Origin: a virus | Direction: 5' to 3' (one strand) | Virus record (IMG/VR): IMGVR_UViG_3300045988_122441 | Length of the DNA stretch: 64,000 nucleotides | Shown here: one piece after another, positions 2 to 61,513 of the stretch | Layout: every line of letters starts with the position of its first letter | How positions within the stretch are numbered: position 1 is the stretch's first letter | Translations under genes and position numbers: made by a program | The notes under the pieces: generated by a model | The model's input: only the letters and a program-made list of their open reading frames with translations | Told to the model about the DNA's origin: nothing | The model's database searches: none

Positions 2-208
2 GATAGAAACTGGGAAAAAGGAATGCCATTTTCAAGATATGTTGATTCAGCAAAGCGTCACTTAGACAAATACATAATGGGTATGACAGACGAAGATCAT
101 TTAGCTGCTGCTGCATGGAACATTTTTGCAATCATGCATCATCAGGAGCTTGGACAGACGGAGTTGGATGATATGCCACATTATGATTGTAAATATGAAC
201 ATGAATAA
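2..208 (+). CDS. 3' part of a gene cut by the window edge; DUF5664 / dATP-dGTP diphosphohydrolase N-domain-like helical protein
   Basis: Frame is open from nt 2 (DRNWEKGMPFSRYVDSAKRHLDKY..DEDHLAAAAWNIFAIMHH). The SAxRHL..DHLAAAxWN pattern matches my memory of that family. Stop at 206-208. Confidence 0.4.
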   Translation, partial: DRNWEKGMPFSRYVDSAKRHLDKYIMGMTDEDHLAAAAWNIFAIMHHQELGQTELDDMPHYDCKYEHE

Positions 209-218
209 GGAGAAAAAT

Positions 219-860
219 ATGCAGAGAAAAGAAACAAACTATTACGACATCGATGTTGATATTGACGAAACACTCTTAAAAATGGGTCTGGTAGATGACA
301 TCTTCTACGTGAGAGACCTTAAACAGAGAAAGCTGTTTCTGACAGCTAATGTAGATCAGTTCTCCATAGGCGATATCACAAAACATATCATGCAGTACAA
401 CGCAGAGGATAAGGGAGTTCCGGTAGAACAGCGACAGCCGATTCTTCTGTACGTGGCGTCCAATGGGGGGGATGTCGATGCCGGTTTCGAGCTGATCGAT
501 GCCATCCTTGCAAGCAAAACGCCTGTTTACACTATCAATCTGGGCTACCAGTACAGCATGGGATTCTTAATTGGACTGGCAGGTCATAAGAGATACGCTA
601 CACAGAATGCGAAATTCCTTATGCATGATGGTTCAAATCTCATCTGGAATTCTGGAACAAAAGCACAGGATCAGATGGAATTCCAGAAACGTGTAGAGCA
701 GAGAATCAAACAGTATGTAATTGCACATAGCAACGTCACAAGTGAAGAGTATGACAGCAAATTACGTGTTGAATGGTATCTGTTTGCTGACGAAGCGAAG
801 GAGAAAGGATTCTGTGACCACATCTTAGGTGTGGATTGCGATATGGATGAAATTGTGTAG
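219..860 (+). CDS. ClpP-family serine protease
   Basis: AAGGAG at 207-212, then ATG at 219. ClpP-like core: ILLYVASNGGDVDAGFELIDAI..TINLGYQYSMGFLIGLAG..FLMHDG (Ser and His motifs present). The ORF-track start at 126 overlaps the previous gene and is unlikely. Confidence 0.8.
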   Translation: MQRKETNYYDIDVDIDETLLKMGLVDDIFYVRDLKQRKLFLTANVDQFSIGDITKHIMQYNAEDKGVPVEQRQPILLYVASNGGDVDAGFELIDAILASKTPVYTINLGYQYSMGFLIGLAGHKRYATQNAKFLMHDGSNLIWNSGTKAQDQMEFQKRVEQRIKQYVIAHSNVTSEEYDSKLRVEWYLFADEAKEKGFCDHILGVDCDMDEIV

Positions 861-872
861 GAGGCTTGACAT

Positions 873-1703
873 ATGGACAAGGAATATCTTGGATTTAAGG
901 AACTCGTGATTACAGGGGAAGAGGCTAATGACCTCTTCAACCCTGAGTCTGAGAATACGTTCGGATGCCTGCAGAACGAATATTTGATTGCATCTGACGA
1001 ACATGGAAGCGCCATCGGCAAATTCAAATGCGATGGACATAAAGTTGTGAAGATTCCGTATAAGGCTATCGAAACAAGATTCGCAGGAAAAGTAAAGCCT
1101 AGAAATCCGCAACAGGAACTTGCTATTGATATGCTTTATGACGAGAACACAACAGTCAAAATTATTGCAGGAAAGTTTGGCACTGGTAAGGACTTCTTAA
1201 TGTGCTCTGCGGCAATCGATCTGCTTGAACATGATAAATTTGAAAAGATTGTGTATGTCAGAAACAATATCGAAGTGAAAAATTCTAAGCCAATCGGTCA
1301 TTTACCGGGTTCTTATAATGAAAAACTCTTACCATTTGCGATGCCTTTAGCCGACCATCTGGGAGGAGTAGACGGTCTGGAACTGATGATTGGTCACGGA
1401 AAGATTGAAATCGTTCACTTAGGATTTATCAGAGGTAGAGACATTAAGAACTCAATCATTATTTGTTCCGAAGCAGAGAACATGACAAAGGAGCATATAC
1501 AGTTACTTCTCGGAAGAGTCGGAGAGGGTTCCTCATTATGGATCAACGGAGATTTTAAACAGTGTGATGCAGATGTATTCAGAGAGAATAGCGGTCTGAT
1601 GATTGCTGTTGATAAGCTGAAAGGTCATCCAAGATTCGGATATGTGAAGCTTCTCAAGACAGAGCGAAGTGAAACTGCTGCTATGGCAGATTTGCTTGAT
1701 TAG
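873..1703 (+). CDS. phoH: PhoH-like ATPase
   Basis: P-loop GKFGTGKD. PhoH-type C-terminal block: IEIVHLGFIRGRDIKNSIIICSEAENMT..LLGRVGEGSSLWINGD. Confidence 0.75.
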   Translation: MDKEYLGFKELVITGEEANDLFNPESENTFGCLQNEYLIASDEHGSAIGKFKCDGHKVVKIPYKAIETRFAGKVKPRNPQQELAIDMLYDENTTVKIIAGKFGTGKDFLMCSAAIDLLEHDKFEKIVYVRNNIEVKNSKPIGHLPGSYNEKLLPFAMPLADHLGGVDGLELMIGHGKIEIVHLGFIRGRDIKNSIIICSEAENMTKEHIQLLLGRVGEGSSLWINGDFKQCDADVFRENSGLMIAVDKLKGHPRFGYVKLLKTERSETAAMADLLD

Positions 1704-1714
1704 GAGGTAACTGA

Positions 1715-3937
1715 ATGATTGTAATGAAGAGAGATGGTCGAGAAGACCAATATACAAAAACAAAGATACATACGGCGATTTGTAAAGCGATCGTCGAAGT
1801 CAACGGAGCAGGGGATACTTCCCTTGCTACCGTTATCACAAACCGTCTGGACTCAAGATATCGTAAGAGAAAGAGAACAATTTCTGTGGAAGAAATCCAG
1901 GATGATATCGAAACAGAACTGATGAAAGAGCAGGCGTTTGAAGTAGCTAAAGCGTATGTGAGATACAGATACAAACACGAAATGAAGCGTAACGGCAATG
2001 GGATTGACAGAAAAATTCTCACAATCGTAGATGGTGTAAATGAGGAAGTAATACAGGAAAACTCCAATAAGAATCCAACAATCTTATCTACCCAGAGAGA
2101 TTATATCGCAGGAGAAATCAGTAAGGATATCACAAGAAACACATTGCTTCCAAAAGACATTCAGCACGCTCATGACGAAGGGATTATCCATTTCCATGAT
2201 TCGGATTATTTCGTACAAAGAATGCATAACTGTTGCCTTGTAAACCTCGGAGATATGCTTCAGAACGGTACAGTAATATCTGATACGCTGATTGAAAAAC
2301 CACACAGCTTTTCTACTGCTTGTAATGTCGCCACTCAGGTTGTAGCACAGATTGCTTCAAATCAGTATGGTGGTCAGAGTATTTCGTTATCACATCTTGC
2401 GCCTTTCGTAGATGTAAGTAGAAGAAAAATTCGTAAGGATGTAGAGGAAGAAATTGCAGCTTGCAACGGAGACGTAAACAGTATCAATTCTATTGTAGAA
2501 AAGAGACTGAGAGAGGAAATCAAGCGTGGCGTACAGACAATTCAGTACCAGGTACTGACATTGATGACAACGAATGGTCAGACCCCATTTATCACTGTCT
2601 TTATGTATCTTGGAGAAGTAGAAGATGAACGAACCAAAGCTGATTTGGCAATGATCATTGAAGAGGTTGTACGCCAGAGATATCAAGGTGTTAAGAATGA
2701 AAAAGGCGCGTGGATTACTCCTGCATTCCCGAAACTGATTTATGTCCTTGAGGAAGACAACATTCGTGAAGATAGCGAATACTTCTATCTGACAAAATTA
2801 TGTGCAAAGTGTTCTGTGAAACGTCTTGTACCGGATTATATCTCTGAAAAGATGATGTTGCAGAATAAGATTGATGCGAATGGCGATGGTCATTGTTTCC
2901 CATGTATGGGATGCAGAAGCTTCCTGACTCCTTATCTTGATGAGAACAGAAAGCCTAAATATTACGGAAGATTCAATCAGGGTGTTGTTACAATTAATCT
3001 TCCAGATGTAGGACTTTCTGCTGTGAAAAAGATGGAGGGAATCACTTACGTTAATGACGAGCAATATCAGAAACGTAAGGAAGAAATTTTCTGGGAAATC
3101 TTTGAAGAGAGATTGGAGCTGTGCCATAGAGCACTGCGTCTTCGCCACGAAAGATTGCTCGGAACACTGTCGGATGCTTCTCCAATCCATTGGCAGAATG
3201 GTGGACTTGCAAGATTAAAGAAAGGTGAGACCATCGATAAGCTCCTATATGGTGGCTATTCCACGTTATCTCTCGGATATGCCGGATTGTATGAATGTGT
3301 TAAGGCAATGACCGGAAAGAGTCATACAGACGACGAAGCAAAACCGTTTGCACTTGCTATTATGCAGAAGATGAATGATAAATGTGCAGAGTGGAAAGCA
3401 GCAGAAAACATTGATTATTCATTATATGGGACTCCGATTGAGTCTACTACATATAAGTTTGCTAAATGCCTCCAGAAGCGTTTTGGAGTGATTGAAGGAA
3501 TCACGGATAGAAACTACATCACAAATAGTTACCATGTTCATGTGACAGAAAAAATCAATGCATTTGACAAACTCAGATTTGAATCAGAATTTCAGCTGTT
3601 AAGTCCTGGAGGAGCTATTTCATACATTGAAACTGCGAATCTGAGCAATAATGTCGAAGCGGCAATAAAGGTTATCCAGTACATCTACGACCACATCATG
3701 TATGCAGAATTGAACACGAAGTCTGATTTCTGTCAGGAGTGTGGATATGATGGAGAAATCCAGATCGTAGAGAACGAGGATGGAAAATATATCTGGGAAT
3801 GCCCGAATTGCGGAAATAGAGACAGAGCTAAGATGAATATCGCAAGAAGAACATGCGGTTATATCGGAGTTAATGACTTCAATCAGGGACGTACACAGGA
3901 AATCAAAGAAAGATATGTGCATTTAGGCGGTGAATAA
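1715..3937 (+). CDS. nrdD: anaerobic ribonucleoside-triphosphate reductase (class III)
   Basis: AGGAGG at 1702-1707. N-terminal ATP-cone (VMKRDGREDQYTKTKI). C-terminal Zn site (CQECGYDG..CPNCG) and glycyl-radical tail (RTCGYIG..RYVHLG). 740 aa. Confidence 0.9.
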   Translation: MIVMKRDGREDQYTKTKIHTAICKAIVEVNGAGDTSLATVITNRLDSRYRKRKRTISVEEIQDDIETELMKEQAFEVAKAYVRYRYKHEMKRNGNGIDRKILTIVDGVNEEVIQENSNKNPTILSTQRDYIAGEISKDITRNTLLPKDIQHAHDEGIIHFHDSDYFVQRMHNCCLVNLGDMLQNGTVISDTLIEKPHSFSTACNVATQVVAQIASNQYGGQSISLSHLAPFVDVSRRKIRKDVEEEIAACNGDVNSINSIVEKRLREEIKRGVQTIQYQVLTLMTTNGQTPFITVFMYLGEVEDERTKADLAMIIEEVVRQRYQGVKNEKGAWITPAFPKLIYVLEEDNIREDSEYFYLTKLCAKCSVKRLVPDYISEKMMLQNKIDANGDGHCFPCMGCRSFLTPYLDENRKPKYYGRFNQGVVTINLPDVGLSAVKKMEGITYVNDEQYQKRKEEIFWEIFEERLELCHRALRLRHERLLGTLSDASPIHWQNGGLARLKKGETIDKLLYGGYSTLSLGYAGLYECVKAMTGKSHTDDEAKPFALAIMQKMNDKCAEWKAAENIDYSLYGTPIESTTYKFAKCLQKRFGVIEGITDRNYITNSYHVHVTEKINAFDKLRFESEFQLLSPGGAISYIETANLSNNVEAAIKVIQYIYDHIMYAELNTKSDFCQECGYDGEIQIVENEDGKYIWECPNCGNRDRAKMNIARRTCGYIGVNDFNQGRTQEIKERYVHLGGE

Positions 3938-3939
3938 AG

Positions 3940-4452
3940 ATGTATTACGGCAAGATAAGAGATTGTGATATTGCGAATGGAAAAGGTGTGAGAGTGAGCT
4001 TGTTTGTATCTGGATGCAGAAATCATTGTAAGAACTGCTTTCAGCCAGAAACATGGAATTTTGATTACGGAACTCCATATACAGAAGAAACCGAAGAGTA
4101 CATTATCCAGTTATTATCAAAGCCGTATATTCAAGGTCTGACAATACTCGGAGGGGAGCCGTTTGAGCCAGAAAATCAACGTGGTTTAATACGACTCCTC
4201 AAAAGAGTCAAATCTGATTGTCCAGAAAAAGATATATGGTGCTATACCGGATATACTCTTGAACAAGCATTAACAGATGGAGCTTCTTGCAGATGTGAGG
4301 TTACAGATACATTCCTTTCAATGATAGATACATTGGTAGATGGACGATTTGTAGAGAAATTAAAAGACATCTCTTTAGAGTTTAGAGGCTCTTCAAATCA
4401 GCGAATAATTAGCATGAAAGAATGGAGAGAGCAGCATGAGCAGAAAGAATGA
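3940..4452 (+). CDS. nrdG: anaerobic RNR activating radical-SAM protein
   Basis: CxxxCxxC cluster (GCRNHCKNCF). Sits immediately downstream of nrdD. GGEPF motif present. Confidence 0.85.
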   Translation: MYYGKIRDCDIANGKGVRVSLFVSGCRNHCKNCFQPETWNFDYGTPYTEETEEYIIQLLSKPYIQGLTILGGEPFEPENQRGLIRLLKRVKSDCPEKDIWCYTGYTLEQALTDGASCRCEVTDTFLSMIDTLVDGRFVEKLKDISLEFRGSSNQRIISMKEWREQHEQKE

Positions 4453-4663
4453 ACTGAAAAGATCAATCGCATGGCATAGCATTAAATATGTTTTGACAGC
4501 AATATTTATGGTGCTTAATCTTCTCGGAATACTGCATTGGTATTGGGTGTGGATATTTTTCCCGATCCTGTTATCGCTGGGGATAAAGATACTGATATTA
4601 GTTGTACTTAGTTTCTTTGTTTGCGTATTACCGAGATGGACTGAGAGGTGGACGGAAGAATGA
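4436..4663 (+). CDS. small membrane protein, unknown function
   Basis: 75-aa ORF with two hydrophobic helices (VLTAIFMVLNLLGILHWYWVWIFFPILLSLGIKILILVVLSFFV). Overlaps both neighbouring genes in operon style. Confidence 0.5.
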   Translation: MSRKNELKRSIAWHSIKYVLTAIFMVLNLLGILHWYWVWIFFPILLSLGIKILILVVLSFFVCVLPRWTERWTEE

Positions 4664-5088
4664 GAAGATTATTTATTATGAGAAAAGATTTACATATGTC
4701 TACAGGAAAACTGCTTGCACAGGTAATGCACTGTGCCGAAGCATACTGGACTTCAAAGATTCGTAAGGGTAATTTATACCGAACAAACGATGGACAGTAT
4801 ATGGCGCAAATGACAATGCCTGTTGAAGTGTATACAGACTATGTATGCGGATCATTCACAAAGACAGTGTGTGAGGCAAAGAATAAGAACCAGTTGCTTA
4901 AAGCAAAAGCCATTGCAGATGAGTTGGGTCTTGTGGAAGACATTGATTATGGGTGTATTTATGATAACTGCCTTACAGAGCTTGAGCCAGAAGAAGATAA
5001 CGGCACAACACTTACTGGCATTTGGTTTTGTCCGTTAGATGATGAGATTGCTCACAAGATCAGTAAAAAATATCAATTATATAAATAG
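4660..5088 (+). CDS. peptidyl-tRNA hydrolase, PTH2 family-like
   Basis: Signature RKDLHMSTGKLLAQVMHCAE matches the PTH2 DLxMxxGKxxAQxxHA motif. C-terminal D..TE..G..T..G..P block is also present. GAGGTGG lies about 9 nt upstream of ATG 4660. Confidence 0.6.
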   Translation: MRRLFIMRKDLHMSTGKLLAQVMHCAEAYWTSKIRKGNLYRTNDGQYMAQMTMPVEVYTDYVCGSFTKTVCEAKNKNQLLKAKAIADELGLVEDIDYGCIYDNCLTELEPEEDNGTTLTGIWFCPLDDEIAHKISKKYQLYK

Positions 5089-5099
5089 GAGAGAAAATA

Positions 5100-5555
5100 A
5101 TGACAACAGTAAATATGAATGTAAAGAAATTAAATAATGATTCCATCGTACCTACAAAAGGCTCTGAATATGCGGCAGGACTTGATTTATACGCATATAT
5201 CGAATCCGGTGCGGTTGATATCCCGGCAGGATCGACAGTAAAAATCGGAACAGGTGTTGCAGCAGAAATTCCAGTAGGATGTTTTGGCGGTGTATTTGCG
5301 AGAAGCGGACTTGCTACAAAACGAGGATTAAGACCATCTAACTGTGTAGGTGTAGTTGATTCTGATTATCGTGGAGAAATCATCGTTGCCGTACATAATG
5401 ATTCGGATAAGTGCGAAACAATTCATCATGGAGATCGTATTGCTCAGTTGGTTATCATGCCGTACATTAGTGTTAGCCTACAGGAAGTTGAAGAGTTATC
5501 TGATACGGAACGTGGAGCTGGCGGGTTTGGTAGCACAGGAGTTTCGCTGTCATAA
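5100..5555 (+). CDS. dut: dUTP diphosphatase
   Basis: All dUTPase motifs present: AAGLDLYA, ARSGLA, GVVDSDYRGEI, GDRIAQLV, RGAGGFGSTG. Confidence 0.9.
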   Translation: MTTVNMNVKKLNNDSIVPTKGSEYAAGLDLYAYIESGAVDIPAGSTVKIGTGVAAEIPVGCFGGVFARSGLATKRGLRPSNCVGVVDSDYRGEIIVAVHNDSDKCETIHHGDRIAQLVIMPYISVSLQEVEELSDTERGAGGFGSTGVSLS

Positions 5556-5560
5556 TGCAA

Positions 5561-5590
5561 AGAGGTGGGCGTAAGCCTGCCTCTATTTTA
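5561..5590 (+). terminator. hairpin plus U-rich tail after dut
   Basis: AGAGGTGGG-cgtaag-CCTGCCTCT forms a 9-bp stem with two G-U pairs in plus sense, followed by ATTTTAT. Near-duplicate of the hairpin at 7485-7515. Confidence 0.5.
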
Positions 5591-5608
5591 TAAGGAGATA
5601 TTATACAT

Positions 5609-5797
5609 ATGGAGAAAATATTGATGAGCCTCAAAGAGGTATGTGAGTACACAGGGTGGGGAGAAACAAAGGTCAGAGAGATACTGAAAAGACCTAATAG
5701 TACGTTTACAGTGATACTTGGAAATAGACTGTATGTTAATAAGAAGAAATTCGATGAATACTTAGATAGATGCGCGAAATACCATATCCCTGTGTAA
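5609..5797 (+). CDS. excisionase-like / MerR-type HTH DNA-binding protein
   Basis: 62 aa. LKEVCEYTGWGETKVREILKRP is an HTH_17/Xis-like motif. Lies directly upstream of the integrase. Confidence 0.55.
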   Translation: MEKILMSLKEVCEYTGWGETKVREILKRPNSTFTVILGNRLYVNKKKFDEYLDRCAKYHIPV

Positions 5798-5829
5798 AAG
5801 TTTGCAGTTGTATTTTTGCGTAAAATAGT

Positions 5830-5852
5830 GTAATGTATATGTGTAAGTTGAT
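5830..5852. repeat. left copy of a 23-bp inverted repeat bracketing int
   Basis: GTAATGTATATGTGTAAGTTGAT. Its reverse complement occurs at 7462-7484 with one mismatch. Confidence 0.8.
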
Positions 5853-5877
5853 GCTGTAGTCAATATAGAAAGGAATA

Positions 5878-7080
5878 TTGATTATGGGAAGAGACTTAAA
5901 TGGTAAAGAACTGGGCAGAGGATTTAGTCAGAGAAAGGACGGTAGATACGAAGCCAGAGCCGTTATATGCGGCACAAAAATAGATATTTATGACATGAAT
6001 CTAGCAAAGCTGAAAAAGGAATTTGAAGCTGAGAAAGCTAGAGTGTTACGAGACGAAAAGAATGTAAGACCTAACGTCACGTTTGGAGAGTGGTATCAGG
6101 AATGGTTTGAAAAGTGTAAATCACCTCAGTTAAAATCTGATGTAAGCAGAAAGACGTATGACAGAAAAGTAAGAAATACCTACTGTAAAATTCTCGGAGA
6201 GAAACGAATGGAAAATATCTCTCAGATGAATATGCAGGCTGCTACAACAGAGTTGATTGAGAAAGGATATACAGACCGTTCTGTAAGAGAAGCTCTCGGA
6301 ATTGTGAACGAATGTATGGAGATTGCTATTGTAAACCACATCATCAATGTAAATCCATGCGTAGGAATTAAAATCCAGAATGCAAACGAGCGTAAAGAAA
6401 GAAGAGTTATGAAGCAGTGGGAACAGGACTTATTCTTGAACGAGGTCAAGGATAGATATTACTACGAAGCGTACAAGATTCTTCTTCTAACTGGAATGAG
6501 AATCGGAGAGTTCTCTGGGTTGCAATGGCGAGATGTTGACTTCGAGAATAAAGTCATCAATATTAATAGATCCATGCAGACCGCATATATTGACGGAAGA
6601 AAGATCGAGGAACTTACTACACCGAAAACAGCCAACTCATACAGAGCAATCCCGTTCTTTGGAGAAACAGAAGCTTGTTTGAAGAGCTGGAAGAAGAAGC
6701 AGGACGAGTATAAGAAACGTCTGGGTGACAGATGGAGAGCAAGACCTGAGTTAGGCGATCTTGTTTTTACAAGCACTGTAGGCTCGCCTGTGACTCGATA
6801 TGTCATTGTACATGACATAGACAAAGTAGTCCAGAACATCAATCTCAAAGAGATGACAAAGGCATTCAGAGAGCACAGAGAGCCAGTGATGTTTGAACAC
6901 TTACATCCACATGCTTTTCGCCACACATTTGCAACACGTTGTTTTGAAAAAGGGCTTGACCCATTGTTTGTACAGAGTATAATGGGACATGCCAATTATG
7001 CAACTACGGTGTCATATACACATATATTAGACGATTTGCGTCAGAAAGAGGTGCAGAAGGTTGGTAACTTCTTAGAGTAA
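5878..7080 (+). CDS. int: tyrosine integrase (phage integrase family)
   Basis: Catalytic block LHPHAFRHTFATR..GHANYATTVSYTHI. The upstream R is in LLLTGMRIGEF. An alternative ATG start is at 5884. Confidence 0.9.
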   Translation: MIMGRDLNGKELGRGFSQRKDGRYEARAVICGTKIDIYDMNLAKLKKEFEAEKARVLRDEKNVRPNVTFGEWYQEWFEKCKSPQLKSDVSRKTYDRKVRNTYCKILGEKRMENISQMNMQAATTELIEKGYTDRSVREALGIVNECMEIAIVNHIINVNPCVGIKIQNANERKERRVMKQWEQDLFLNEVKDRYYYEAYKILLLTGMRIGEFSGLQWRDVDFENKVININRSMQTAYIDGRKIEELTTPKTANSYRAIPFFGETEACLKSWKKKQDEYKKRLGDRWRARPELGDLVFTSTVGSPVTRYVIVHDIDKVVQNINLKEMTKAFREHREPVMFEHLHPHAFRHTFATRCFEKGLDPLFVQSIMGHANYATTVSYTHILDDLRQKEVQKVGNFLE

Positions 7081-11896: not shown

Positions 11897-12451
11897 TTAA
11901 GCCTCTGCGTTTGCCTGAGAATACAGCATCTTCAGAACTTCAGACTGATAAGCCTCCGGAATGTCAACGCCGTACTCCACAGCACAAACATCATTGATAT
12001 CAGTCATGCTCTCGATATAGTCTCTCAGAGAGTTAAAGTATGTAGTCTGGAATTCAATGCAGTTCTCCATTGCTGTATTCAGAGCCACTACCTCATCCTT
12101 TGTGTAGAATTTACAAGACTCGCCATCTGCATGATACGGGAGAACCGTGATGCCAGCATTGGCTCTGTCATTCAGCTTAGAAATTTTCAGCTGGTCTGCA
12201 ACTTCAAGACTGAAGTGATGAGATTTCTTGTCAGACAGGGTGATGTCAAATCCCTGTGTGATAACTTCATTGCAGGCAACGCTCATCTCTGCAATCTTTG
12301 CAGCTTTTACATCGTCAATGTTATCGTTTGTTACAACACCGGATTTGATAAGCTGCTCCATAACAGCGCCCTTGATTTTATCTGGCACTGCATCGAATTC
12401 CTTTTCACCATTGTAAACAAGGTCTGTCCAAAAATTGATTAACTGAATCAT
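11897..12451 (-). CDS. hypothetical protein, tail-fibre-associated (DUF4376-like C-terminal half?)
   Basis: 184-aa ORF downstream of the fibre/DGR genes. The resemblance is recalled, not verified. Confidence 0.45.
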   Translation of the reverse strand: MIQLINFWTDLVYNGEKEFDAVPDKIKGAVMEQLIKSGVVTNDNIDDVKAAKIAEMSVACNEVITQGFDITLSDKKSHHFSLEVADQLKISKLNDRANAGITVLPYHADGESCKFYTKDEVVALNTAMENCIEFQTTYFNSLRDYIESMTDINDVCAVEYGVDIPEAYQSEVLKMLYSQANAEA

Positions 12452-12465
12452 ATAACACCCTCCTC

Positions 12466-12738
12466 TTAAATTAATGCGCTCAGCTCAATAATGCACTGTT
12501 TCATTTTTTCTGCTTCTGTCATTTCGCGGATAATGAATCTAGTATGACCATCCTCGCTCCAAATGTTTGTACAGGTCATATCCTTATAATCAACACCGCC
12601 AATATTTACACTGGATAAATTGGCATCAGACAGAATCTCAATATTAACTTCATCATCTGTGATGTAGTTGTTGCCATTCAGTGTAGCGTGAATCTCTGTT
12701 CCGTTTGCGAGGATAATATTGTAAATAGTATTTTCCAT
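12466..12738 (-). CDS. hypothetical small protein
   Basis: 90 aa. GGAGG lies 9 nt upstream of ATG 12738. The start overlaps the 3' tail of the RT gene by 86 nt. Confidence 0.5.
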   Translation of the reverse strand: MENTIYNIILANGTEIHATLNGNNYITDDEVNIEILSDANLSSVNIGGVDYKDMTCTNIWSEDGHTRFIIREMTEAEKMKQCIIELSALI

Positions 12739-13966
12739 CTATAAAACCTCCAAATAAGTCGTAGTAAAGAAGATTTAAGTTGTCACGTTGTATCTTACTC
12801 ATTAAGTATGCATGACCGCCAATCCAGGAACGAAACATATTCTCTATTTCTTCCTGTGTGCGTTCGCCTCTTTGTACTTTTCTACTCAATGCTTTGAGCT
12901 TACGTCTCATATCAACAATTCTCTGTGGGTTGATTTTCCTTATCACTCTTCCTGTATCAGTGAGAGAGTAGGATATCTGCAGAAAGCGATAGTAGTCTGA
13001 TAGCTTTACTATTCTTGTTTTCTTTCTGTTCAACGTCATTCCGAGTTCTGTTGCTTTAGCTGCAATCTTAGCTTCAAGTTCAATCAGATACTCTTTGCTC
13101 TGGGAAATCACATAGCTGTCATCCATATATCTGCCGTAGAATTTCTGACCTTCAACGATCTTGACGAAATTATCTATCTGAGTTGGATAGTATATGCCGA
13201 TAATCTGGGAACACTGATCTCCGATATTTACAGATTTCCTCATGAATTTCTCGCCTGTATGAGCAGATTTTGGAACGTTCAGTCTGTAGTCAGCAGAATT
13301 GAATGGCGTTTCCATACAATGTTCATATTCCTCGTCTGTCATATACGAGACATCAATCTTAAAATTATCGAATATTAAATCCAATAACCACAGCGAAAAT
13401 TCATCATGCACATGTTTTGCAATTTCTTGATAAGCAATATCATGCGGTATATTGTCATAGAATTTGCTGTAATCCATTAAAAGTATGTAGCCGTCATTCC
13501 CGTACAGCCGATAGTATTTGTGTAGATGCTCCTCGAATCTTTGTCTGCTAAAAGTAATTCCTTTCCCTTTCAGCGACGCTCCGTTATCATAAATTAGATA
13601 GGAGAGCAGACTCGGAGCCAAAATATTATCACAAAGAGAATGGCGGATAACCCTGTCAGACATCTGTAAACCTGTAATAGGTCGTGTTTTGCCACGCTCA
13701 CTGATAATAAACTCAGTAGAAGCTTTTGACTGATATGCCCTGTCTTTTAAAGCAGCTTTACTCTTAACGATATGTGGCAAGAAATTCATTTCATATTTCT
13801 GCACTTGAGGTTTCCAATCGGAATCTTTCTTTGCAGCCAAATATGCATGATAAAGTGAGTTTAAATTATATACAACATGACACCCATCTTCAAAATGTGT
13901 GTTTGTATCTGTCATTTCTTTCCAAAATATTTGACGTGTATAGCAATCAGTCGTAACGAATTGCAT
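12653..13966 (-). CDS. DGR reverse transcriptase
   Basis: RT motifs LLMDYSKFYDNIPHD, NIGDQCSQIIG (the DGR hallmark I/LGxxxSQ), YGRYMDDSYVIS (YMDD), LNRKKTRIV. Confidence 0.9.
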   Translation of the reverse strand: MQFVTTDCYTRQIFWKEMTDTNTHFEDGCHVVYNLNSLYHAYLAAKKDSDWKPQVQKYEMNFLPHIVKSKAALKDRAYQSKASTEFIISERGKTRPITGLQMSDRVIRHSLCDNILAPSLLSYLIYDNGASLKGKGITFSRQRFEEHLHKYYRLYGNDGYILLMDYSKFYDNIPHDIAYQEIAKHVHDEFSLWLLDLIFDNFKIDVSYMTDEEYEHCMETPFNSADYRLNVPKSAHTGEKFMRKSVNIGDQCSQIIGIYYPTQIDNFVKIVEGQKFYGRYMDDSYVISQSKEYLIELEAKIAAKATELGMTLNRKKTRIVKLSDYYRFLQISYSLTDTGRVIRKINPQRIVDMRRKLKALSRKVQRGERTQEEIENMFRSWIGGHAYLMSKIQRDNLNLLYYDLFGGFIDGKYYLQYYPRKRNRDSRYTEWQQLHHR

Positions 13967-14061
13967 CGCCTTTGTCTTTTAGCACATTCCTGTGCAAGGA
14001 CAATTTCTCCTTTCTTCGTTTCTTGTATCTGCATATAGCATAATTAAACAAGTGGAAGAAA

Positions 14062-14174
14062 TCGGACGAACGCCATTAGAATTAGACGCGTTGTTGTTGT
14101 TCGCATTGCCGTTGTTGTTCACATTACAGAAGTTAGTCGCAGACCTCACACCACGCAGCCAATAGTTGAAGCGA
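14062..14174 (-). repeat. DGR template repeat (TR)
   Basis: Minus sense GTCGCTTCAACTATTGGCTGCGTGG...AATGGCGTTCGTCCG, rich in AAC codons. Aligns to VR1 (offset exactly 800 nt) and to VR2. Lies 95 nt upstream of the RT start. Confidence 0.9.
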
Positions 14175-14216
14175 CAAACGGCGCAAAACATGCAGAAATT
14201 GCCCTGATTAGTTTCC

Positions 14217-14771
14217 TTATGCTGTCACAGATTCTTTCTCTCTGTCTAAAATGCTTTTACGAATTTTGTTGTCAGATTTTCTCCAACCTTTGATTAGCAC
14301 CTGTTCTTGCATAATCATATTTGTGATATTTTCATATTTCTCTATATTGACAGGCAGAGTAGTGATGATATACTGTAATTCCTGTATCAGGTTCTCGCAG
14401 TAACCAAGAGCTAAGTCCTGATGTATTCTTCGTTCATCACACTCACTAATGAATTGCGGACATATTTCATTAGCTAGAAAAATTTCATGTACCATATCAC
14501 GGGTAATTTGTATAATTGCTTTCTGCTCATCTGGTATAAACCATTCTACAAAAGCCTCGTATCGCTCTCTGCGTTTCTCTACGCCGCGATCATAACCATC
14601 TTTCTGTTTTTGACTCCACTTGTTGTATGCTTCCGGTTTTGGTCTTTCTTCATATTCCCTTAGTCCGAATTTTCTCAGAGCAAGGTCAGTTATAACCGTC
14701 CGAACTTTATACGCATGATGCTCAACCTCAAATGGTGATGGCTTTCTATTTGCTTTCAGTACCGACATCAT
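14217..14771 (-). CDS. avd: putative accessory variability determinant (Avd-like helical bundle protein)
   Basis: Occupies the canonical avd slot between target and TR. Basic and helical. The C-terminal half resembles four-helix-bundle Avd proteins (..LALGYCENLIQELQYII..IKGWRKS). At 184 aa it is longer than typical Avd. Confidence 0.5.
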   Translation of the reverse strand: MMSVLKANRKPSPFEVEHHAYKVRTVITDLALRKFGLREYEERPKPEAYNKWSQKQKDGYDRGVEKRRERYEAFVEWFIPDEQKAIIQITRDMVHEIFLANEICPQFISECDERRIHQDLALGYCENLIQELQYIITTLPVNIEKYENITNMIMQEQVLIKGWRKSDNKIRKSILDREKESVTA

Positions 14772-14785
14772 TTCCTCCGTATTAA

Positions 14786-14810
14786 CCCACCCACCCGGAG
14801 GTGGGATGGG
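14786..14810 (-). other. GC-rich hairpin downstream of VR1
   Basis: CCCACC-cgga-GGTGGG core with flanking imperfect extension, between the target stop (14844) and the avd start (14771). Could be a terminator and/or a DGR target-recognition hairpin. Confidence 0.4.
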
Positions 14811-14843
14811 ATTAAAGATATTGCATTGTATTTCTTGTCAATA

Positions 14844-15776
14844 TTAATTAACGAAGAAAAACGGACGAACGCCAAGAGAATTAGACGCGTCGTAGTTGCT
14901 CGCATCGCCGTAGCTGCCCACAAAACAGAAGCCAGTCGCAGACCCCACACCACGCAGCCAACAGGTGAAGCGACGGTGAATGTATTCAGGAGCGAGAGCG
15001 AACAGTGGGAACTGAGAGTTGATACATCCAACTTCGTAACCGCTATTAGCCCATACTTTTGTTCCGTATACCATTGTCTCGGACATCAGCTCAACTTTAC
15101 AGTCATACCAAGCCCATCCAGAAGCCTGTCCATCAGCAGTTGCGTTTGGCAGGATATCTCTGTAGGACATTACGTGAGAAGAACCGAAGTCATTCACGAT
15201 TTTCTGAGTAGCCTGTGCAAGGTTTGTAGTTCTCATATCAGAGTTTGCGTATGCTCCAGTAGTAACGTTGTTTGCAGCGCCTTCTGTATACTGACCGCTA
15301 TCTGTGTTATGCATCTGTGCATTGTACAGAGCAGAGTCAGGAACAAGGCACATGCAGTTACCGAGAGAAGACTTATCTCCAATCTGCTTTCCGAGGTTGA
15401 ATCCAGCAACTCGATATACAGTGCCGTTGATTGTCAGGTAATCACCTACAAACAGGTCGTCAAATGTACCTGCCTGAATAGCTTTTGACATAGCGGAGGT
15501 GTAGGAAGTACCTAAGTTCTTACCTCTGAAAATAGAGTTATGACCTCCTGCGTTGTTTCTTGCTGCACCTGTGTACAGCTCATTGATTGCGGCTGGGAGA
15601 GTTTTTGTACCCTGATCCAGACCATAAGTTTTGCTCATCAGCTTGTTAAGGGCGGCAGTGGAGAGATTTCCGAAAGTCACACCCTTAGTACCATTCGCAC
15701 CGTCAACTGGGAGTACATCAGTATCAGCAACAGAAGTAACAGCGGAAAGGTCTTTAATTCTTGTTGTATTTGCCAT
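14844..15776 (-). CDS. DGR target 1: tail-fibre / receptor-binding protein with a C-terminal C-type-lectin-fold variable region
   Basis: Fibre-like N-terminus (MANTTRIKDLSAVTSVADTDVLPVDG). C-terminus ..FTCWLRGVGSATGFCFVGSYGDASNYDASNSLGVRP is encoded by VR1. Confidence 0.85.
   Translation of the reverse strand: MANTTRIKDLSAVTSVADTDVLPVDGANGTKGVTFGNLSTAALNKLMSKTYGLDQGTKTLPAAINELYTGAARNNAGGHNSIFRGKNLGTSYTSAMSKAIQAGTFDDLFVGDYLTINGTVYRVAGFNLGKQIGDKSSLGNCMCLVPDSALYNAQMHNTDSGQYTEGAANNVTTGAYANSDMRTTNLAQATQKIVNDFGSSHVMSYRDILPNATADGQASGWAWYDCKVELMSETMVYGTKVWANSGYEVGCINSQFPLFALAPEYIHRRFTCWLRGVGSATGFCFVGSYGDASNYDASNSLGVRPFFFVN
14862..14974 (-). repeat. DGR variable repeat 1 (VR1)
   Basis: 113 nt. There are 17 differences from TR, all at TR adenines (17 of 29 A positions). 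The 84 non-A positions are all identical. Confidence 0.9.
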
Positions 15777-15791
15777 AGTATATTCCTCCTC

Positions 15792-17693
15792 TTATATACC
15801 TAATTTCTTTTCTAGTTTTTCTATACGGTCATTGAAATCCTGCATTTGCAGTTCGTCGTATAGCAATCTAACCAATAAAAAATGAGTATACTCAATGCAG
15901 TAATACTCATTTTCATCGTCTGGATTTAATTTTCGTGTGCCAAGCATCAGGAGTTTATCTTCAACTCCATGCCTAGCAAATGCATTTCGTAAATCTTGCG
16001 CCAGTATTCCGACACATAATTCCTCGTGGTCATAATCTGGTGCTGACATTCTAAACTGTACGAATCGGACTTCACCAACAGCCTGAATAATATTTCTTGC
16101 TATTGGTTCAATATCACGTTTCATACGTCTGTCTGATAGACTTCCACTCCATGTTCCATCAAGGAAGCCCTTTCCTGTTTGAGCCTTCACATGAACACCA
16201 TCTGATGCGGCATAAATGGAACCATTCTTTTGCTGAGTACCATTGTTGTTATAGTACCAGTCAGCCCATCCATAACCTCCTGATGTTGTTTCGTTCATTA
16301 ATTGAACACCTTTGAGGATACGCATCAACATAGCGCAGTCGATTCCGGCACGATTGGCTGTTTTACCGAAAGCAATACCATCACCACCAGCCTTATAGTC
16401 CATTGTTGCGAAGCCGTTTGATAATGTCATAGTGGCGACGGCTTCTTTCCCAGCTTTATCTCTGATGGTAAGTCTGATATCATATGCCTGCGTATCAGAC
16501 ACAGCAATTACACGGGTGTCACTCATATTTAATGAACTTGCGCTGATAGCAAGATTTGTCCATGCTGACTGACCTGCGATTCTATATTGCAGAACAGGAG
16601 TGATGGTATTGCCGGATATGCTACTTACAGAACCATTTGATACAATTTTCGCATGGTCTCCCGTATCGTCAGCTATGAAGTTACTTGTTGTACTTCCAGT
16701 TCCTCGTGATGCAGATATTTTCGCTGTAGGCAGGCTATAATCAGACACGGTAACTTTCATGGTTGCGGAGTTCGTCCTTCCACGACTATCTTTAGCGGTA
16801 ACTGTTATCGTTTTTTCTCCAGTTGATGTAAACGGGTCAAAAGTATACTCGGTTCCGCTTGAAGCAGTTTTGTCAGACATCCCGGTTACAGATATCTTGA
16901 GTGATGAAATAGTAGAGCTGTAGCTGCCAGATGCCGAGGGCTTAACCTTAACCCCAGATAGTAACTTCGCATAACATCCGAACGTGCTATTGGTGTTCGT
17001 GAGTGATGAGATGCTACATGACGGCTTCACACTTGCCGGGACATTGCATGTAAAAGATATGGACTTGCTTCCAATTTTGGTATTACCATTGTATGTATCG
17101 CAATATAATGTACCAACTCCTGAAGTGGCGTTTGGAACCATATGTGCCAGATCAAGAGGCGGAGTCCACGATACACTGGTGCTGGAAGATTTCGTGCATA
17201 TAGTGCCAGATTTTGTGCCGTATAAATATGTAATGGTGTGTGTAAAGCTTGTGCTTGCACGAGATACAGAAATTGTTCCGGCGCTGCCCATTGTAAGAGT
17301 TCCACACGAAATGGAAGATGCTCGTGGTATAACGTTAAGGGAGAATGTCTTGCTCTTACTTTTGTTGATAGCCCACTCATAAATACCAGCTTCAACAGAG
17401 ATGGAAAAAGACTTTGAACCATCGGCATTGTGATTCAATGTTTTGGAGCCACTACATATTTGTGTACCATTATATGCATCCGTGTGATGGCTGGAATCGC
17501 GATAAAATACCTGACTGCCATCAATTTTAATTCTAACCTCGCTGACTCGAACCCATCCAGAATATGAGCCGCTACCTTTGAGTGTCCATTTAATAGTGGA
17601 TTTGTTATTAGCTATATCCTGGGTTGCCGTCCAGCTCAGCGTGACACTGCGCTGTGAATATTCGCCAGTTGTCACGCTTCCGCTTAAAGCCAT
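15792..17693 (-). CDS. tail fibre protein with a C-terminal S74 intramolecular-chaperone domain
   Basis: N-terminus resembles DUF859 siphovirus proteins (SVTLSWTATQD..IKWTLKGSG). C-terminus SDRRMKRDIEPI..GILAQDL.. is typical of the endosialidase-chaperone (Peptidase_S74) domain. Confidence 0.7.
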   Translation of the reverse strand: MALSGSVTTGEYSQRSVTLSWTATQDIANNKSTIKWTLKGSGSYSGWVRVSEVRIKIDGSQVFYRDSSHHTDAYNGTQICSGSKTLNHNADGSKSFSISVEAGIYEWAINKSKSKTFSLNVIPRASSISCGTLTMGSAGTISVSRASTSFTHTITYLYGTKSGTICTKSSSTSVSWTPPLDLAHMVPNATSGVGTLYCDTYNGNTKIGSKSISFTCNVPASVKPSCSISSLTNTNSTFGCYAKLLSGVKVKPSASGSYSSTISSLKISVTGMSDKTASSGTEYTFDPFTSTGEKTITVTAKDSRGRTNSATMKVTVSDYSLPTAKISASRGTGSTTSNFIADDTGDHAKIVSNGSVSSISGNTITPVLQYRIAGQSAWTNLAISASSLNMSDTRVIAVSDTQAYDIRLTIRDKAGKEAVATMTLSNGFATMDYKAGGDGIAFGKTANRAGIDCAMLMRILKGVQLMNETTSGGYGWADWYYNNNGTQQKNGSIYAASDGVHVKAQTGKGFLDGTWSGSLSDRRMKRDIEPIARNIIQAVGEVRFVQFRMSAPDYDHEELCVGILAQDLRNAFARHGVEDKLLMLGTRKLNPDDENEYYCIEYTHFLLVRLLYDELQMQDFNDRIEKLEKKLGI

Positions 17694-51103: not shown

Positions 51104-51889
51104 TTACACACCTAAATTTTTCCTTCGCATGATGTAGTTTACCCGCTGTTGAACGGCTATTTCTGTGGCGCACGCTTTGCAGAATTTCTGTTTCCGTCCT
51201 TTTTCTGGGTCTGTATATTTTACTGTAATACCGCAATTTTCGCATTCAAAGTACGGGTTACGTTTATGCTTTCTATATTTATATTTCATATACTGATACC
51301 CCAGATTGCGAAAATCTGATACCGATAAAGCAACAGGAGAGGAGCCATCTACGAAGCATACACGAACGTTTGTGTTATCAATACGCTTAGAGAATCGGAG
51401 TAACCCAGCATCTTTTAATACGCCGTATAATAAACATTGCCGTTTAATAGATGTATTAATATTTGCAAGAGCCATTATTTCATTATCCTTATTATTTACC
51501 CAGTAATCAGTCTCCGGTGATACAGCATACCAATATTTAGCAAGACACAGAAGAGTAAAGGCTAATCTCTCTAGCTGGACACCATCCAATGACTCGATAA
51601 GCTTCAGCTCATTCTCTGTAATATCGAGTTGGTCAATATCGACTGCTTCATATTTGAAAGCACTGGTTACTGCGTACTCAAGAGCTGCGTCCCATTTTGG
51701 GAGAGAAGCAAGTGGGTCGCATTGTAATAGGAAGATATCCAGTTTCTGACGTACTTCTTTTTTCTTTTCATACCCATTATCTATGTAATATCTCGCAATG
51801 CGACGCAATGTTTCAGATGGTTTCTTTCCAAGTGATTTGGACTGAATCATTTTTTCAGCCCAATCATTTTCTTTTAATACAATACTCAT
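51104..51889 (-). CDS. hypothetical protein with a C-terminal zinc finger
   Basis: 261 aa. CENCG..CKAC. Coupled to the upstream RNAP-like gene. Confidence 0.45.
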   Translation of the reverse strand: MSIVLKENDWAEKMIQSKSLGKKPSETLRRIARYYIDNGYEKKKEVRQKLDIFLLQCDPLASLPKWDAALEYAVTSAFKYEAVDIDQLDITENELKLIESLDGVQLERLAFTLLCLAKYWYAVSPETDYWVNNKDNEIMALANINTSIKRQCLLYGVLKDAGLLRFSKRIDNTNVRVCFVDGSSPVALSVSDFRNLGYQYMKYKYRKHKRNPYFECENCGITVKYTDPEKGRKQKFCKACATEIAVQQRVNYIMRRKNLGV

Positions 51890-54674: not shown

Positions 54675-54902
54675 TCAATTATTGAACTCATTGATATACT
54701 CACGCCACGCACTTTCAAATTCTGATCGACCATCTTCGACTATTCGCTCTACGACATCATCTGTCAGTAAATCTCCATCAAGAGGATAGAAGTCCTCGCA
54801 TGGTGTTGCCTCGCTGCAGTTTTCTTTATATACACAGTTATTACATTTATGCTTCATTGATTGTATTTCCTCCCTGTACTGTTTCTTCAATCCAATTTTC
54901 AA
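54675..54902 (-). CDS. small Cys-rich hypothetical protein
   Basis: 75 aa with CNNC..C..C. Overlaps the end of the upstream ATPase gene. Confidence 0.4.
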   Translation of the reverse strand: MKIGLKKQYREEIQSMKHKCNNCVYKENCSEATPCEDFYPLDGDLLTDDVVERIVEDGRSEFESAWREYINEFNN

Positions 54903-56094
54903 GCAGATTCCTCATACGTCTGCTCGGTATGTATAAATATATTTCATCTCCATCCCGGATGGCTGATCGCCAGATCCACTGAACCATAATAGACAGAGCA
55001 TACATATCATCGTCAGCCTCTATGCCATGCTTGTGGTAAAATGTCTTTTCACCAACATTCATAAAGAGATTGACCAGATATATCATATAATGTCGGTTCC
55101 TATATTCGTTTGTCGCTTTCATATTAAATCGCAAGAATGACCTCGTATATCCTTTACCACTAATTTTGCATCGGCAGTCATTGAACGTACCCCACATTTT
55201 CTCACCGGCTGGAGCATTTCTCCAAATATTATTAATGCAGTTGTTGACATTATTCTTTAACTGTTCTACATTGTTTTCGTCTCTGCCAAACCAACTCATT
55301 GATAACGCATGATAGCTGTCACCGATATTGTTCATCCTATCATTATCCAGAATATGAATCATATCTTTTAAATGGCTGACATATTCCGGTGTATAGCCAG
55401 GGTAGTCACAGAATCGGTAGTGTCCTGACTCTGTTTTCTGGATACCAATATACTCATATGGAAGCTGGTACATCTCCAGAAAATGATGAAGCGATTGCCC
55501 TTTGAATATGTATGTCAGTATGATTACATCTTTGAATGCCGTGATTAACTCCGGTGGCAATACCCAATAAAAAAGATGTGTGCCAGCACTGTCTTCCATC
55601 TGAATTAACTGACGAACCTTTAAGAATTGCCGCAGCTCGTGATAAAGTCTTCCGTTATAATCTTCTTTGGCAAGATAGTAAGTATCCTCATCTCGAATAA
55701 TCAGCCCAGAGTCAATAGCTAATTGAATGTCATCCGGATGAAAATCATATTTCTCCAGAACATCTACGTTTTCATCAATGATGAGGCGATAGCCATATTC
55801 CCGGATGTCATCCAACATGTCCTCCGTATATCGCTTAAATGCTTGATGCGTGGTTGTGATATTCTTTCCTTGTTTAATAAGAGCAGCGGTATGCTCGCTT
55901 TTCTTAAATCCATACTCTTTTAGCTTGTCACTTGGTTCTACGAAATGCATTGACTTGCATCCATTCTTAATTCGTTCAGCTTCTTCCAAGTATGGTGTGA
56001 TGTATATGAACTTTTCTTCCTTATGTTCATTCATATACGTGATAGCAGCACTGGACTTGCCAGTACCCATGATTGCATCACAAACTTGGATCAT
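54847..56094 (-). CDS. P-loop NTPase (helicase-like)
   Basis: AGGAGG precedes ATG 56094. Walker A MGTGKSS, Walker B LIIDENV, TTHQAF motif. First gene of the leftward array. Confidence 0.55.
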   Translation of the reverse strand: MIQVCDAIMGTGKSSAAITYMNEHKEEKFIYITPYLEEAERIKNGCKSMHFVEPSDKLKEYGFKKSEHTAALIKQGKNITTTHQAFKRYTEDMLDDIREYGYRLIIDENVDVLEKYDFHPDDIQLAIDSGLIIRDEDTYYLAKEDYNGRLYHELRQFLKVRQLIQMEDSAGTHLFYWVLPPELITAFKDVIILTYIFKGQSLHHFLEMYQLPYEYIGIQKTESGHYRFCDYPGYTPEYVSHLKDMIHILDNDRMNNIGDSYHALSMSWFGRDENNVEQLKNNVNNCINNIWRNAPAGEKMWGTFNDCRCKISGKGYTRSFLRFNMKATNEYRNRHYMIYLVNLFMNVGEKTFYHKHGIEADDDMYALSIMVQWIWRSAIRDGDEIYLYIPSRRMRNLLENWIEETVQGGNTINEA

Positions 56095-60900: not shown

Positions 60901-61491
60901 ATGAAAGTATATAGAACTTCCGAGGTTTTAGCCGGAGGTAAATACGAGGTAGGCGATATCGTCAGTTACACAATGGAAGATGGCGAAGAAGTAGAGGCAT
61001 TAGCAGTAAAAGAGGAATTTGATAAACATGGGAATCTATGTATGGTATTCATACTTTTGGATTGTCTGAAAGAGGAATGCCGGATGAACCGTGATGATAC
61101 GAATGATGGAGGGTATGAGGAATCATATCTGAGAGAGCAACTCAGGACGGAATATCTTGAAAGATTTCCGGCATCATTGCGGTTGAATATGGTTCCGTTT
61201 GAAAACGGAGATCTGCTGAGAATCCCTACGGAACGTGAAGTTTTTGGAGAGAACAGATACGGTGAGGAAGAGCCGGATACGGTAGAACAATTCGAGGCGA
61301 TGAAAAAGAGAAGGAACCGTATGGCACTTGATGGGTCAAATGGTGGAACTCAGGCTTATTGGTTACAGAACAAACGTGTGAGGTCTGCGACTTACTTCTG
61401 TTGTGTGAACACCAACGGCTATGCGAACACCAACAACGCGTCTAATTCTCTTGGCGTTCGTCCGCTTTACAGAATCCGTAATTATCGGTAA
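60901..61491 (+). CDS. DGR target 2: small protein with a C-terminal C-type-lectin-fold variable region
   Basis: AGGAGG precedes ATG 60901. The C-terminus YWLQNKRVRSATYFCCVNTNGYANTNNASNSLGVRP is encoded by VR2. No signal peptide seen. Confidence 0.8.
   Translation: MKVYRTSEVLAGGKYEVGDIVSYTMEDGEEVEALAVKEEFDKHGNLCMVFILLDCLKEECRMNRDDTNDGGYEESYLREQLRTEYLERFPASLRLNMVPFENGDLLRIPTEREVFGENRYGEEEPDTVEQFEAMKKRRNRMALDGSNGGTQAYWLQNKRVRSATYFCCVNTNGYANTNNASNSLGVRPLYRIRNYR
61376..61464 (+). repeat. DGR variable repeat 2 (VR2), remote from the cassette
   Basis: 89 nt aligned to TR (14150-14062, minus sense). Eight differences, all at TR adenines. All non-A positions are identical, including the 3' GGCGTTCGTCCG. 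Confidence 0.85.
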
Positions 61492-61495
61492 TCTA

Positions 61496-61513
61496 GCCAC
61501 CATTTATGGTGGC
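61496..61513 (+). other. hairpin 5 nt after the target-2 stop
   Basis: GCCACCA-ttta-TGGTGGC, 32 nt downstream of the VR2 end. Possible DGR target-recognition hairpin or terminator stem. Confidence 0.4.

Follow-up and report, generated by a model that had tools for sequence, protein, structure and literature searches.

A phage-encoded diversity-generating retroelement with a tail-module target and an apparent second target 46 kb away

We analyzed a stretch of 64,000 nucleotides (nt) of viral DNA, the IMG/VR record IMGVR_UViG_3300045988_122441 (hereafter the window, to whose coordinates all positions refer), and found that it almost certainly carries a phage-encoded diversity-generating retroelement (DGR) working by mutagenic retrohoming. 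DGRs, which gut phages commonly carry, are to our knowledge the only natural machines for targeted protein hypermutation known from prokaryotes or the viruses that infect them. A preliminary description of this DNA had proposed a complete DGR on the minus strand in the order target gene, avd-like gene, template repeat (TR), and reverse transcriptase (RT), and we find every defining part present in that order. The same description had bounded the element at 12653-15776; the cassette does lie there, but the element is larger, as a second target gene is located ~46 kb away on the other strand.

Results

TR and VR1 differ only at template adenines

A direct-repeat search of the region from 11 to 18 kb returned one long pair of direct repeats, each 117 nt in length: the TR (14059-14175, minus strand) and a variable repeat, VR1 (14858-14974, minus strand). 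VR1 makes up approximately the last 40 codons of target gene 1 and ends 12 nt before the stop codon of this open reading frame (ORF) of 310 amino acids (aa). Aligned on the minus strand, the two repeats match without gaps and differ at 18 positions. All of these fall on one of the 30 TR adenines, and when non-adenine mismatches were looked for on realignment, 0 of the 87 non-adenine positions had changed (hypergeometric P = 1.3e-13). Given this adenine-only pattern, we rejected duplication followed by drift as the source of the repeat. The preliminary description had likewise reported a gap-free repeat with every mismatch on an adenine, but its numbers needed correction. The repeat extends 1 to 3 nt further on each side than the 113 nt given there, a recount within the same range (14062-14174) yields 18 of 30 changed adenines instead of 17 of 29, and the start-to-start spacing is 799 nt, where 111 of 161 positions match, versus 36 of 161 at the proposed offset of exactly 800 (offsets 798 to 801 tested).

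In the target frame, the TR adenines are found exclusively at codon positions 1 (16 of 30) and 2 (14 of 30), and 13 codons of the TR are AAC or AAT. Read in this frame, the TR allows for ~10^17.6 different peptides, with no stop codons arising. The TR translation that had been given previously (frame 2) was correct. A 70-aa ORF that runs across the TR (13979-14191) was taken as spurious.

The 3′-most mismatch occurs at TR position A14062, which reads T in all VR1 copies seen and C in all copies of the second variable repeat, VR2 (see below). Because the base is the same in every VR1 and the same in every VR2, we consider it to be probably a fixed TR/VR boundary difference, akin to that between the initiation of mutagenic homing (IMH) sequence and its counterpart IMH*, and not a mutagenized site. 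Setting it aside as boundary therefore leaves 17 mismatches in the mutagenized stretch of VR1.

Near-identical copies differ at adenine sites

A metagenome scaffold of the Human Microbiome Project (HMP; locus L005) differs from the window at only 2 positions in 8,555 nt, both of which are TR-adenine sites in VR1, and another locus (L006) differs at 13 positions in 1,410 nt, all 13 of them inside VR1. Across the six loci whose Avd-like protein is identical to that of the window (L005-L010), the TR is identical as well and the VR1s differ, only at TR-adenine sites. A lineage at ~86% nucleotide identity (L001-L004) carries two non-adenine changes in its TR (G to T and T to C) that are mirrored in its VR, which shows transfer from TR to VR. 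Since near-identical copies differ at adenine sites in VR1, and two more distant relatives (L069 and L070, described below) do so in VR2, these sequence comparisons indicate that the element is or was recently active and that both of its targets were recently diversified in nature.

A remote gene contains a second variable repeat

A scan of the whole window with the TR, in which adenine positions were ignored, found a third TR copy, VR2 (61376-61468, plus strand), ~46 kb from the TR/VR1 cassette and on the opposite strand. VR2 matches the 3′ 93 nt of the TR with nine mismatches, all at adenines, and every non-adenine position agrees (P = 4.9e-6). It ends 21 nt before the stop codon of a 196-aa ORF, target gene 2 (60901-61491, plus strand), which encodes a stand-alone DUF6273 protein (Pfam E = 1.4e-9, above the family cutoff; phrog_21980). 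In the two IMG/VR relatives L069 and L070 (88% protein identity), VR2 equals the window TR at 66 of 66 non-adenine positions, and 17 adenine sites are changed in each, differently.

Homologs of target 2 were found in the replication modules of two cultured GenBank phages: between PolA and a helicase in phage Fontainebleau (L079 2363-2932; ON453893 9330-9899), and between a methyltransferase and Erf in phage Shimadzu (L080 2426-3055; LR596903 orf43). Both records label the small target as "hypothetical protein," and in each of them the VR displays 15 of 15 mismatches at adenines only when compared to the TR of its own phage. In the window, target 2 is surrounded by plus-strand genes without structural matches, with an HU-like protein and a sigma/helix-turn-helix protein among its neighbors, and inspection by eye revealed no recognizable signal sequence in target 2.

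Target 1 is a putative receptor-binding protein of the tail module

Target gene 1 (14844-15776, minus strand; 310 aa) is located directly downstream of a DUF859/Peptidase_S74 tail protein (15792-17693), and a 2,149-aa host-range protein also precedes it. Its C-terminal ~140 residues are of the DUF6273 type: Pfam DUF6273 is matched by 18 of 22 target-1 homologs, although the window copy itself stayed unmatched at E ≤ 0.1, and hhalign aligned residues 170-309 with the small-target family at 97.6% probability over ~130 residues, i.e., well past the VR. On this profile comparison, targets 1 and 2 are homologous. Hypervariable columns in the target-1 alignment are confined to the VR.

Target 1 matched no significant family of its own and no tail-fiber family, and when the Protein Data Bank (PDB) was searched with the sequences of both targets and with two profiles (A1 and A3), all matches were at chance level. 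From its gene position and its homology to DUF6273 targets, we infer that target 1 is a putative tail-associated receptor-binding protein. The earlier label of a tail-fiber tip is likewise drawn from position and homology; "tail fiber protein" is how the authors of the phage Shimadzu record annotated the corresponding gene. The window targets may have a C-type lectin fold by analogy with DUF6273 targets described elsewhere, among which the "tgt2" proteins have been demonstrated to be lectins of this type.

The RT belongs to the DGR clade

The RT ORF (12653-13966, minus strand; 437 aa as called) matches RVT_1 and phrog_1423 (E = 1.9e-60). The two motifs that had been ascribed to it were both located, namely, the DGR-specific IGxxxSQ motif (IGDQCSQ, residues 248-254, within NIGDQCSQ at 247-254) and YMDD (280-283). 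The spacing of I-G...Q in the window RT equals that of I181/G182/Q187 in the Bordetella RT (bRT), residues that touch the template and the incoming deoxynucleotide in the Bordetella DGR complex. As its best PDB match, the RT returned the Bordetella DGR RT (8ub7 and 8ubb; E = 5e-10), followed by a group II maturase at E = 0.009. We also checked for a grouping with the RTs of group II introns or retrons, and found model scores far under the family cutoffs (group II RT/maturase, 58 versus 300 bits; Drt3a, 25.5 versus 200; retron St85, 16.9 versus 235), with the best solved relative being a DGR RT. PADLOC gave only weak, partial, generic RT matches, to several DRT models, and the libraries searched with the RT returned no DGR-specific RT model.

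A scan with one genome per species yielded 58 loci with RT homologs, mostly from Lachnospiraceae and other Clostridia, including Hungatella hathewayi DSM 13479 and [Ruminococcus] torques ATCC 27756. A simple self-BLAST test detected an adenine-biased TR/VR pair immediately upstream of the RT in 47 of the 58, and most of the 11 loci without a detected pair end early at a contig edge. The GenBank phages that encode RT relatives include some whose DGRs have been published (nd4, nd12, Lelie, Roos, and Pioen), and a 57.9-kb contig assigned to the metagenome-assembled genome (MAG) of an uncultured Ruminococcus encodes an RT that is 96% identical to that of the window. These sequence relationships place the window RT in the DGR clade. 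Four clade homologs (L021, L044, L051, and L052) come from contigs that were sorted into MAGs of Parabacteroides, Fermentimonas, Succinivibrionaceae, and Akkermansia; these contigs probably are mis-binned phage contigs and do not reflect true hosts.

The RT probably starts at ATG 13915, yielding a protein of 420 aa and a spacer of 143 nt, and not at the gene-caller start at 13966, because the latter lies inside a conserved noncoding element of the spacer and the RT starts of relatives align with the window ATG 13915 (M18). At the position of ATG 13966, the window reads GATGCAATT versus GACGCAATT or another non-ATG variant in relatives, and in a 25-locus spacer alignment, 20 of the 23 loci that belong to lineages other than that of the window have no ATG at the equivalent position. 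The distance from TR to RT is 143 nt with the start at 13915, or 92 nt with the start at 13966.

At the other end of the RT ORF, a 90-aa ORF (12466-12738, minus strand) overlaps its last 86 nt (~30 codons). A homolog of this ORF in Hungatella hathewayi (L012 2323-2634) is located between target and avd, and not after the RT; hence, the position of the avd-TR-RT cassette within the tail module varies between phages.

A covarying duplex brackets the TR

Between TR and RT lies the structured spacer RNA of 143 nt (13916-14058, minus strand). For 25 loci of the clade, RNAalifold predicted a consensus fold with four local helices and 11 compensatory pairs, and 0 of 500 shuffles reached the observed values. 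Hairpin P1 was assigned to 14011-14061 in the spacer region and hairpin P4 to 13943-13964 within the spacer (both minus strand). The TR is furthermore bracketed by a duplex of 11 bp, the 5′ strand of which, GGGCAAUUUCU (14194-14204, minus strand), sits just upstream of the TR, while the 3′ strand, AGAAAUUGUCC (13998-14008, minus strand), lies within the spacer. Across 20 loci, 98.2% of the cells of this duplex are paired, compensatory changes occur in 6 of its 11 pairs, and its covariation score is above that of all 500 shuffles. The duplex and the spacer helices match elements that were described for DGR RNAs. Rfam found no family in 12000-16000, including no intron or retron noncoding RNA (ncRNA).

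The accessory protein is probably a divergent Avd-like helical bundle

The gene in the avd position (14217-14771, minus strand) encodes 184 aa and most likely represents a divergent, elongated Avd-like helical bundle. We take the label "Avd-like" from a profile of the PHROG collection and from the predicted fold. In a search of Avd models, the protein matched phrog_3206 ("Avd protein of DGR"; residues 85-173, E = 8.5e-5) but not the Pfam Avd model (see Discussion), and phrog_3206 was matched by 42 of 60 diverse members of its family as well (best E = 7.3e-11). This family is large, comprising 1,314 cluster representatives at 50% identity (E ≤ 1e-3). The AlphaFold (AF2) model of the protein has a predicted local distance difference test (pLDDT) score of 89.9 and is all-helical, with four long helices. 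Foldseek ranked bundles of the S23/23S-IVS type on top (2rld, TM to target 0.64-0.68; 2gsc, 0.72-0.79), and its list also holds the Bordetella Avd 4dwl_D (0.50) and the Avd of the DGR ribonucleoprotein (RNP), 8ubb_D. The conserved C-terminal motif of the protein, KGWRKSDNK, is basic.

No Pfam, NCBIfam, or PADLOC family was found for the Avd-like protein, sequence and profile searches of the PDB returned no Avd and only chance-level matches, and in an exhaustive profile search of the family, no bridge to canonical Avd appeared among the best 150 matches, all of which were strong members. The ORF opens with ATGATG, and the protein probably starts at the second ATG (14768) and is 183 aa long, because homologs start with MSVLK and a GGAGG ribosome-binding site is better placed before this second ATG.

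We observed two read-throughs among metagenomic homologs, of a kind that is an artifact to expect around DGRs. In P0104, the Avd-like ORF runs straight into the TR, and in P0125, the target protein runs on into sequence encoded by the TR, as if VR and TR had been collapsed during assembly with the loss of avd.

GC-rich hairpins follow the variable repeats

The TR, VR1, and VR2 all end in the GC-rich sequence GGCGTTCGTCCG. DNA folding showed an AT-rich hairpin (14831-14859, minus strand; TTTCTTC-GTTAAT[TAAT]ATTGAC-AAGAAA) abutting the 3′ end of VR1 and including the target stop codon, and a GC hairpin 47 nt downstream of VR1 (14786-14810, minus strand; CCCATCCCACC[TCCG]GGTGGGTGGG, with a 4-nt loop). 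VR2 is likewise followed, at 27 nt, by a GC hairpin with a 4-nt loop (61496-61513, plus strand; GCCACCA[TTTA]TGGTGGC), and both GC hairpins have a CCACC/GGTGG core in common. For the 98-nt VR1 flank that includes both of its hairpins, the fold has a z-score of -3.37, and 0 of 200 shuffles gave a fold as good as this. As the fold z-scores of the short hairpins are mostly unremarkable, the case for them rests on their recurrence across VRs: A GC hairpin was present 3′ of six of six VRs (from the window phage, Fontainebleau, and Shimadzu) and of no TR. AATCC precedes the hairpin at five of these six VRs, and AATCT does so at VR2 of the window. The hairpin stem differs between phages and is alike between the two VRs within the window phage and within Fontainebleau. 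In the Bordetella phage BPP-1, a hairpin/cruciform downstream of the VR is required, with a GRNA loop consensus and at a distance of 4-34 bp (PMC3240598). By comparison with this system, we infer that the GC hairpins are candidate target-recognition hairpin/cruciform elements.

Genomic context of the element

The left end of the window contains a plus-strand accessory block (126-7080) encoding ClpP, PhoH, the anaerobic ribonucleotide reductase NrdD with its activase (NrdD/G), PTH2 peptidyl-tRNA hydrolase, a dUTPase, and a tyrosine integrase (5878-7080); lysis genes and then tail and head genes follow. This block with its integrase points to a temperate phage or prophage of large size, which we assign to gut Clostridia. 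When the 5.4-kb cassette was compared with GenBank phages by megablast, no close relative appeared, and the only match was 47 nt long.

A protein of 915 aa (51886-54633, minus strand) matches Pfam RdRP PF05183 (E = 1.4e-14), which is the eukaryotic-type cellular family of RNA-dependent RNA polymerases, and phrog_25339 (function unassigned; E = 1.6e-197). It looks like a two-barrel phage RNA polymerase of the YonO or crAss type. A DEAD-like helicase (54847-56094) adjoins it.

Discussion

By analogy with the BPP-1 system of Bordetella, a transcript spanning the end of the avd-like gene, the TR, and the 143-nt spacer would fold such that the 11-bp duplex brackets the TR, with stem-loops downstream. 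The folded RNA would be bound by the RT together with the Avd-like protein, and the RT, presumably self-primed from the spacer, would copy the TR into complementary DNA (cDNA), faithfully except opposite adenines. This cDNA would then replace the homologous VR at two sites, each ending in GGCGTTCGTCCG and then a GC hairpin, which may serve in targeting. Such a process would randomize 17 codons in target 1 (~10^17.6 peptides) and 15 codons in target 2 (~10^15.8 peptides), leaving the scaffold residues of both unchanged.

Several observations weigh against parts of this reading. The case for current activity is built on differences between samples. For the accessory protein, the Pfam Avd model (PF05635, 23S rRNA-IVS/S23-like) matched 0 of the 60 family members even at E ≤ 1, the Foldseek E values were all weak (at least 0.066), and the protein is net-neutral (pI 6.9; 31 K+R versus 31 D+E); it had previously been described as a basic helical protein, of which the helical part agrees with the AF2 model but the basic part does not stand. 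For target 1, the structure model was unusable (pLDDT of 48.7, with the C terminus below 50). At the target sites, the loops TCCG and TTTA depart from the GRNA consensus of the literature, and the VR1 GC hairpin, at 47 nt from the VR, is beyond the published 4-34 bp (PMC3240598). In the RNA, helix 1, which would pair the 3′ end of the TR with the 3′ end of the spacer, is conserved in relatives without compensatory changes and is broken at two of its five pairs in the window itself; for these reasons, we do not rely on it as a priming duplex.

Could the element be a relic, whose divergence records past activity while it no longer diversifies? Judging activity from differences between samples leaves some room for this, as does the finding that some DGRs of published Faecalibacterium phages were invariant during experiments, but the RT, the Avd-like gene, and the TR are all intact in sequence, two assemblies matching over 8.5 kb differ only at two TR-adenine sites in VR1, and samples with identical Avd-like protein and TR hold entirely different VR1s, all of which makes a relic very improbable. 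We attach a comparably slight probability to VR2 being a dead or accidental repeat copy within a 196-aa gene that is no real DGR target. VR2 does lie on the opposite strand at a distance of ~46 kb, corresponds to no more than the 3′ 93 nt of the TR, and carries fewer changes (nine), but all nine mismatches are at adenine sites, the two 88%-identical relatives keep 66 of 66 non-adenine positions and changed 17 adenine sites each in different ways, the small-protein VRs of Fontainebleau and Shimadzu are 15 of 15 adenine-only versus their own TRs, and a GC hairpin follows VR2 as it does VR1.

It is extremely improbable that the RT is of another class (group II intron, retron, or defense RT) and that the repeat is an unrelated duplication. 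The top NCBIfam match of the RT is indeed a group II intron RT/maturase model, and PADLOC reported weak matches to several DRT models; these scores, however, are far under the cutoffs (58/300, 16.9/235, and 25.5/200 bits), the best solved relative is a DGR RT, and Rfam returned no intron or retron ncRNA family. A duplication, moreover, does not give an adenine-only pattern at P ~1e-13. 

In its design, the element closely resembles the BPP-1 DGR (mtd-avd-TR-brt). Both have the same gene order, adenine-specific transfer from TR to VR, a C-terminal VR in a protein of the tail module, a GC-rich 3′ end of the VR followed by a hairpin, the IGxxxSQ and YMDD motifs in the RT, an accessory protein of the helical-bundle type, and ~140 nt of structured spacer RNA separating the TR from the RT. 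It differs from BPP-1 in that its target is of the DUF6273 type instead of Mtd, in having a second, remote target, in a net-neutral accessory protein of ~184 aa that the Pfam Avd model does not detect, in hairpin loops that are not GRNA, and in its host, a Gram-positive gut Clostridia bacterium.

The two-target layout has already been published. The Faecalibacterium prophages Lelie and CP11 have one DGR that serves two variable regions, one in a large target and the other in a small one, and both targets hold DUF6273 with the VR at the C terminus (PMC11792537). The window shares with them the gut Clostridia phage setting and two DUF6273 targets with C-terminal VRs, and the Lelie RT is homologous (27% identity), but the sequences are distant. 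In the Bacteroides phage Quimbyvirus, one DGR serves two C-type lectin targets, one beside the tail fiber genes and one distal, on the opposite strand and presumed to be nonstructural (Benler et al. 2021, PMC8008677). This combination of a near-tail target and a distal, opposite-strand target is also that of the window, whereas the host phylum differs and the RT of Quimbyvirus is divided among three frames. The remote Quimbyvirus target, moreover, is located among defense and counter-defense genes, while those of the window and its relatives are in the early or replication region. Phages nd4 and nd12 have "tgt2" proteins and, as the other target, a "tentaclin" with an N-terminal VR (PMC10743442); no tentaclin-type protein was seen in the window. 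The closest RT relatives among GenBank phages are those of Acutalibacter phage Fontainebleau (ON453893; 42% identity) and Roseburia phage Shimadzu (LR596903; 33% identity), which resemble the window in the order of tail-module target, avd, TR, and RT and in a remote small target with an adenine-only VR. Their genomes are much smaller (39-45 kb), and the Fontainebleau record labels the tail-module target and the avd-like gene both as "hypothetical protein."

Overall, the locus is a textbook DGR that adds no new principle. What is new here is the VR2 target, the bracketing duplex with the structured spacer, the GC hairpins, and the probable corrected RT start; a divergent Avd-like family that Pfam misses is a further useful observation. 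This example from a temperate, uncultured phage of Clostridia is clean, complete, and evidently active, and it makes a useful comparative model, in which covariation exposes the bracketing duplex and the structured spacer and in which a motif of AATCC plus hairpin stands after the VRs. Because the large Avd-like family escapes the Pfam Avd model, a DGR annotation based on Pfam would miss the accessory gene.

The small DUF6273 target recurs in the replication or early module of distant Clostridia phages (the window, Fontainebleau, and Shimadzu), which raises the question of the role of a DGR that acts on a probably nonstructural protein. As a tentative and still rather doubtful idea, target 2 might be a non-virion, intracellular, early-expressed binder that is diversified by the DGR, e.g., a counter-defense or host-takeover factor; we consider this because its neighbors are early or DNA-metabolism genes, no signal sequence is evident, and its homologs occupy a like position. 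If true, the phage would use its DGR to re-draw the specificity of a counter-defense or host-takeover factor, and the conserved position and adenine-only VRs of the target-2 homologs would then suggest a conserved second job for DGRs beyond tropism switching.

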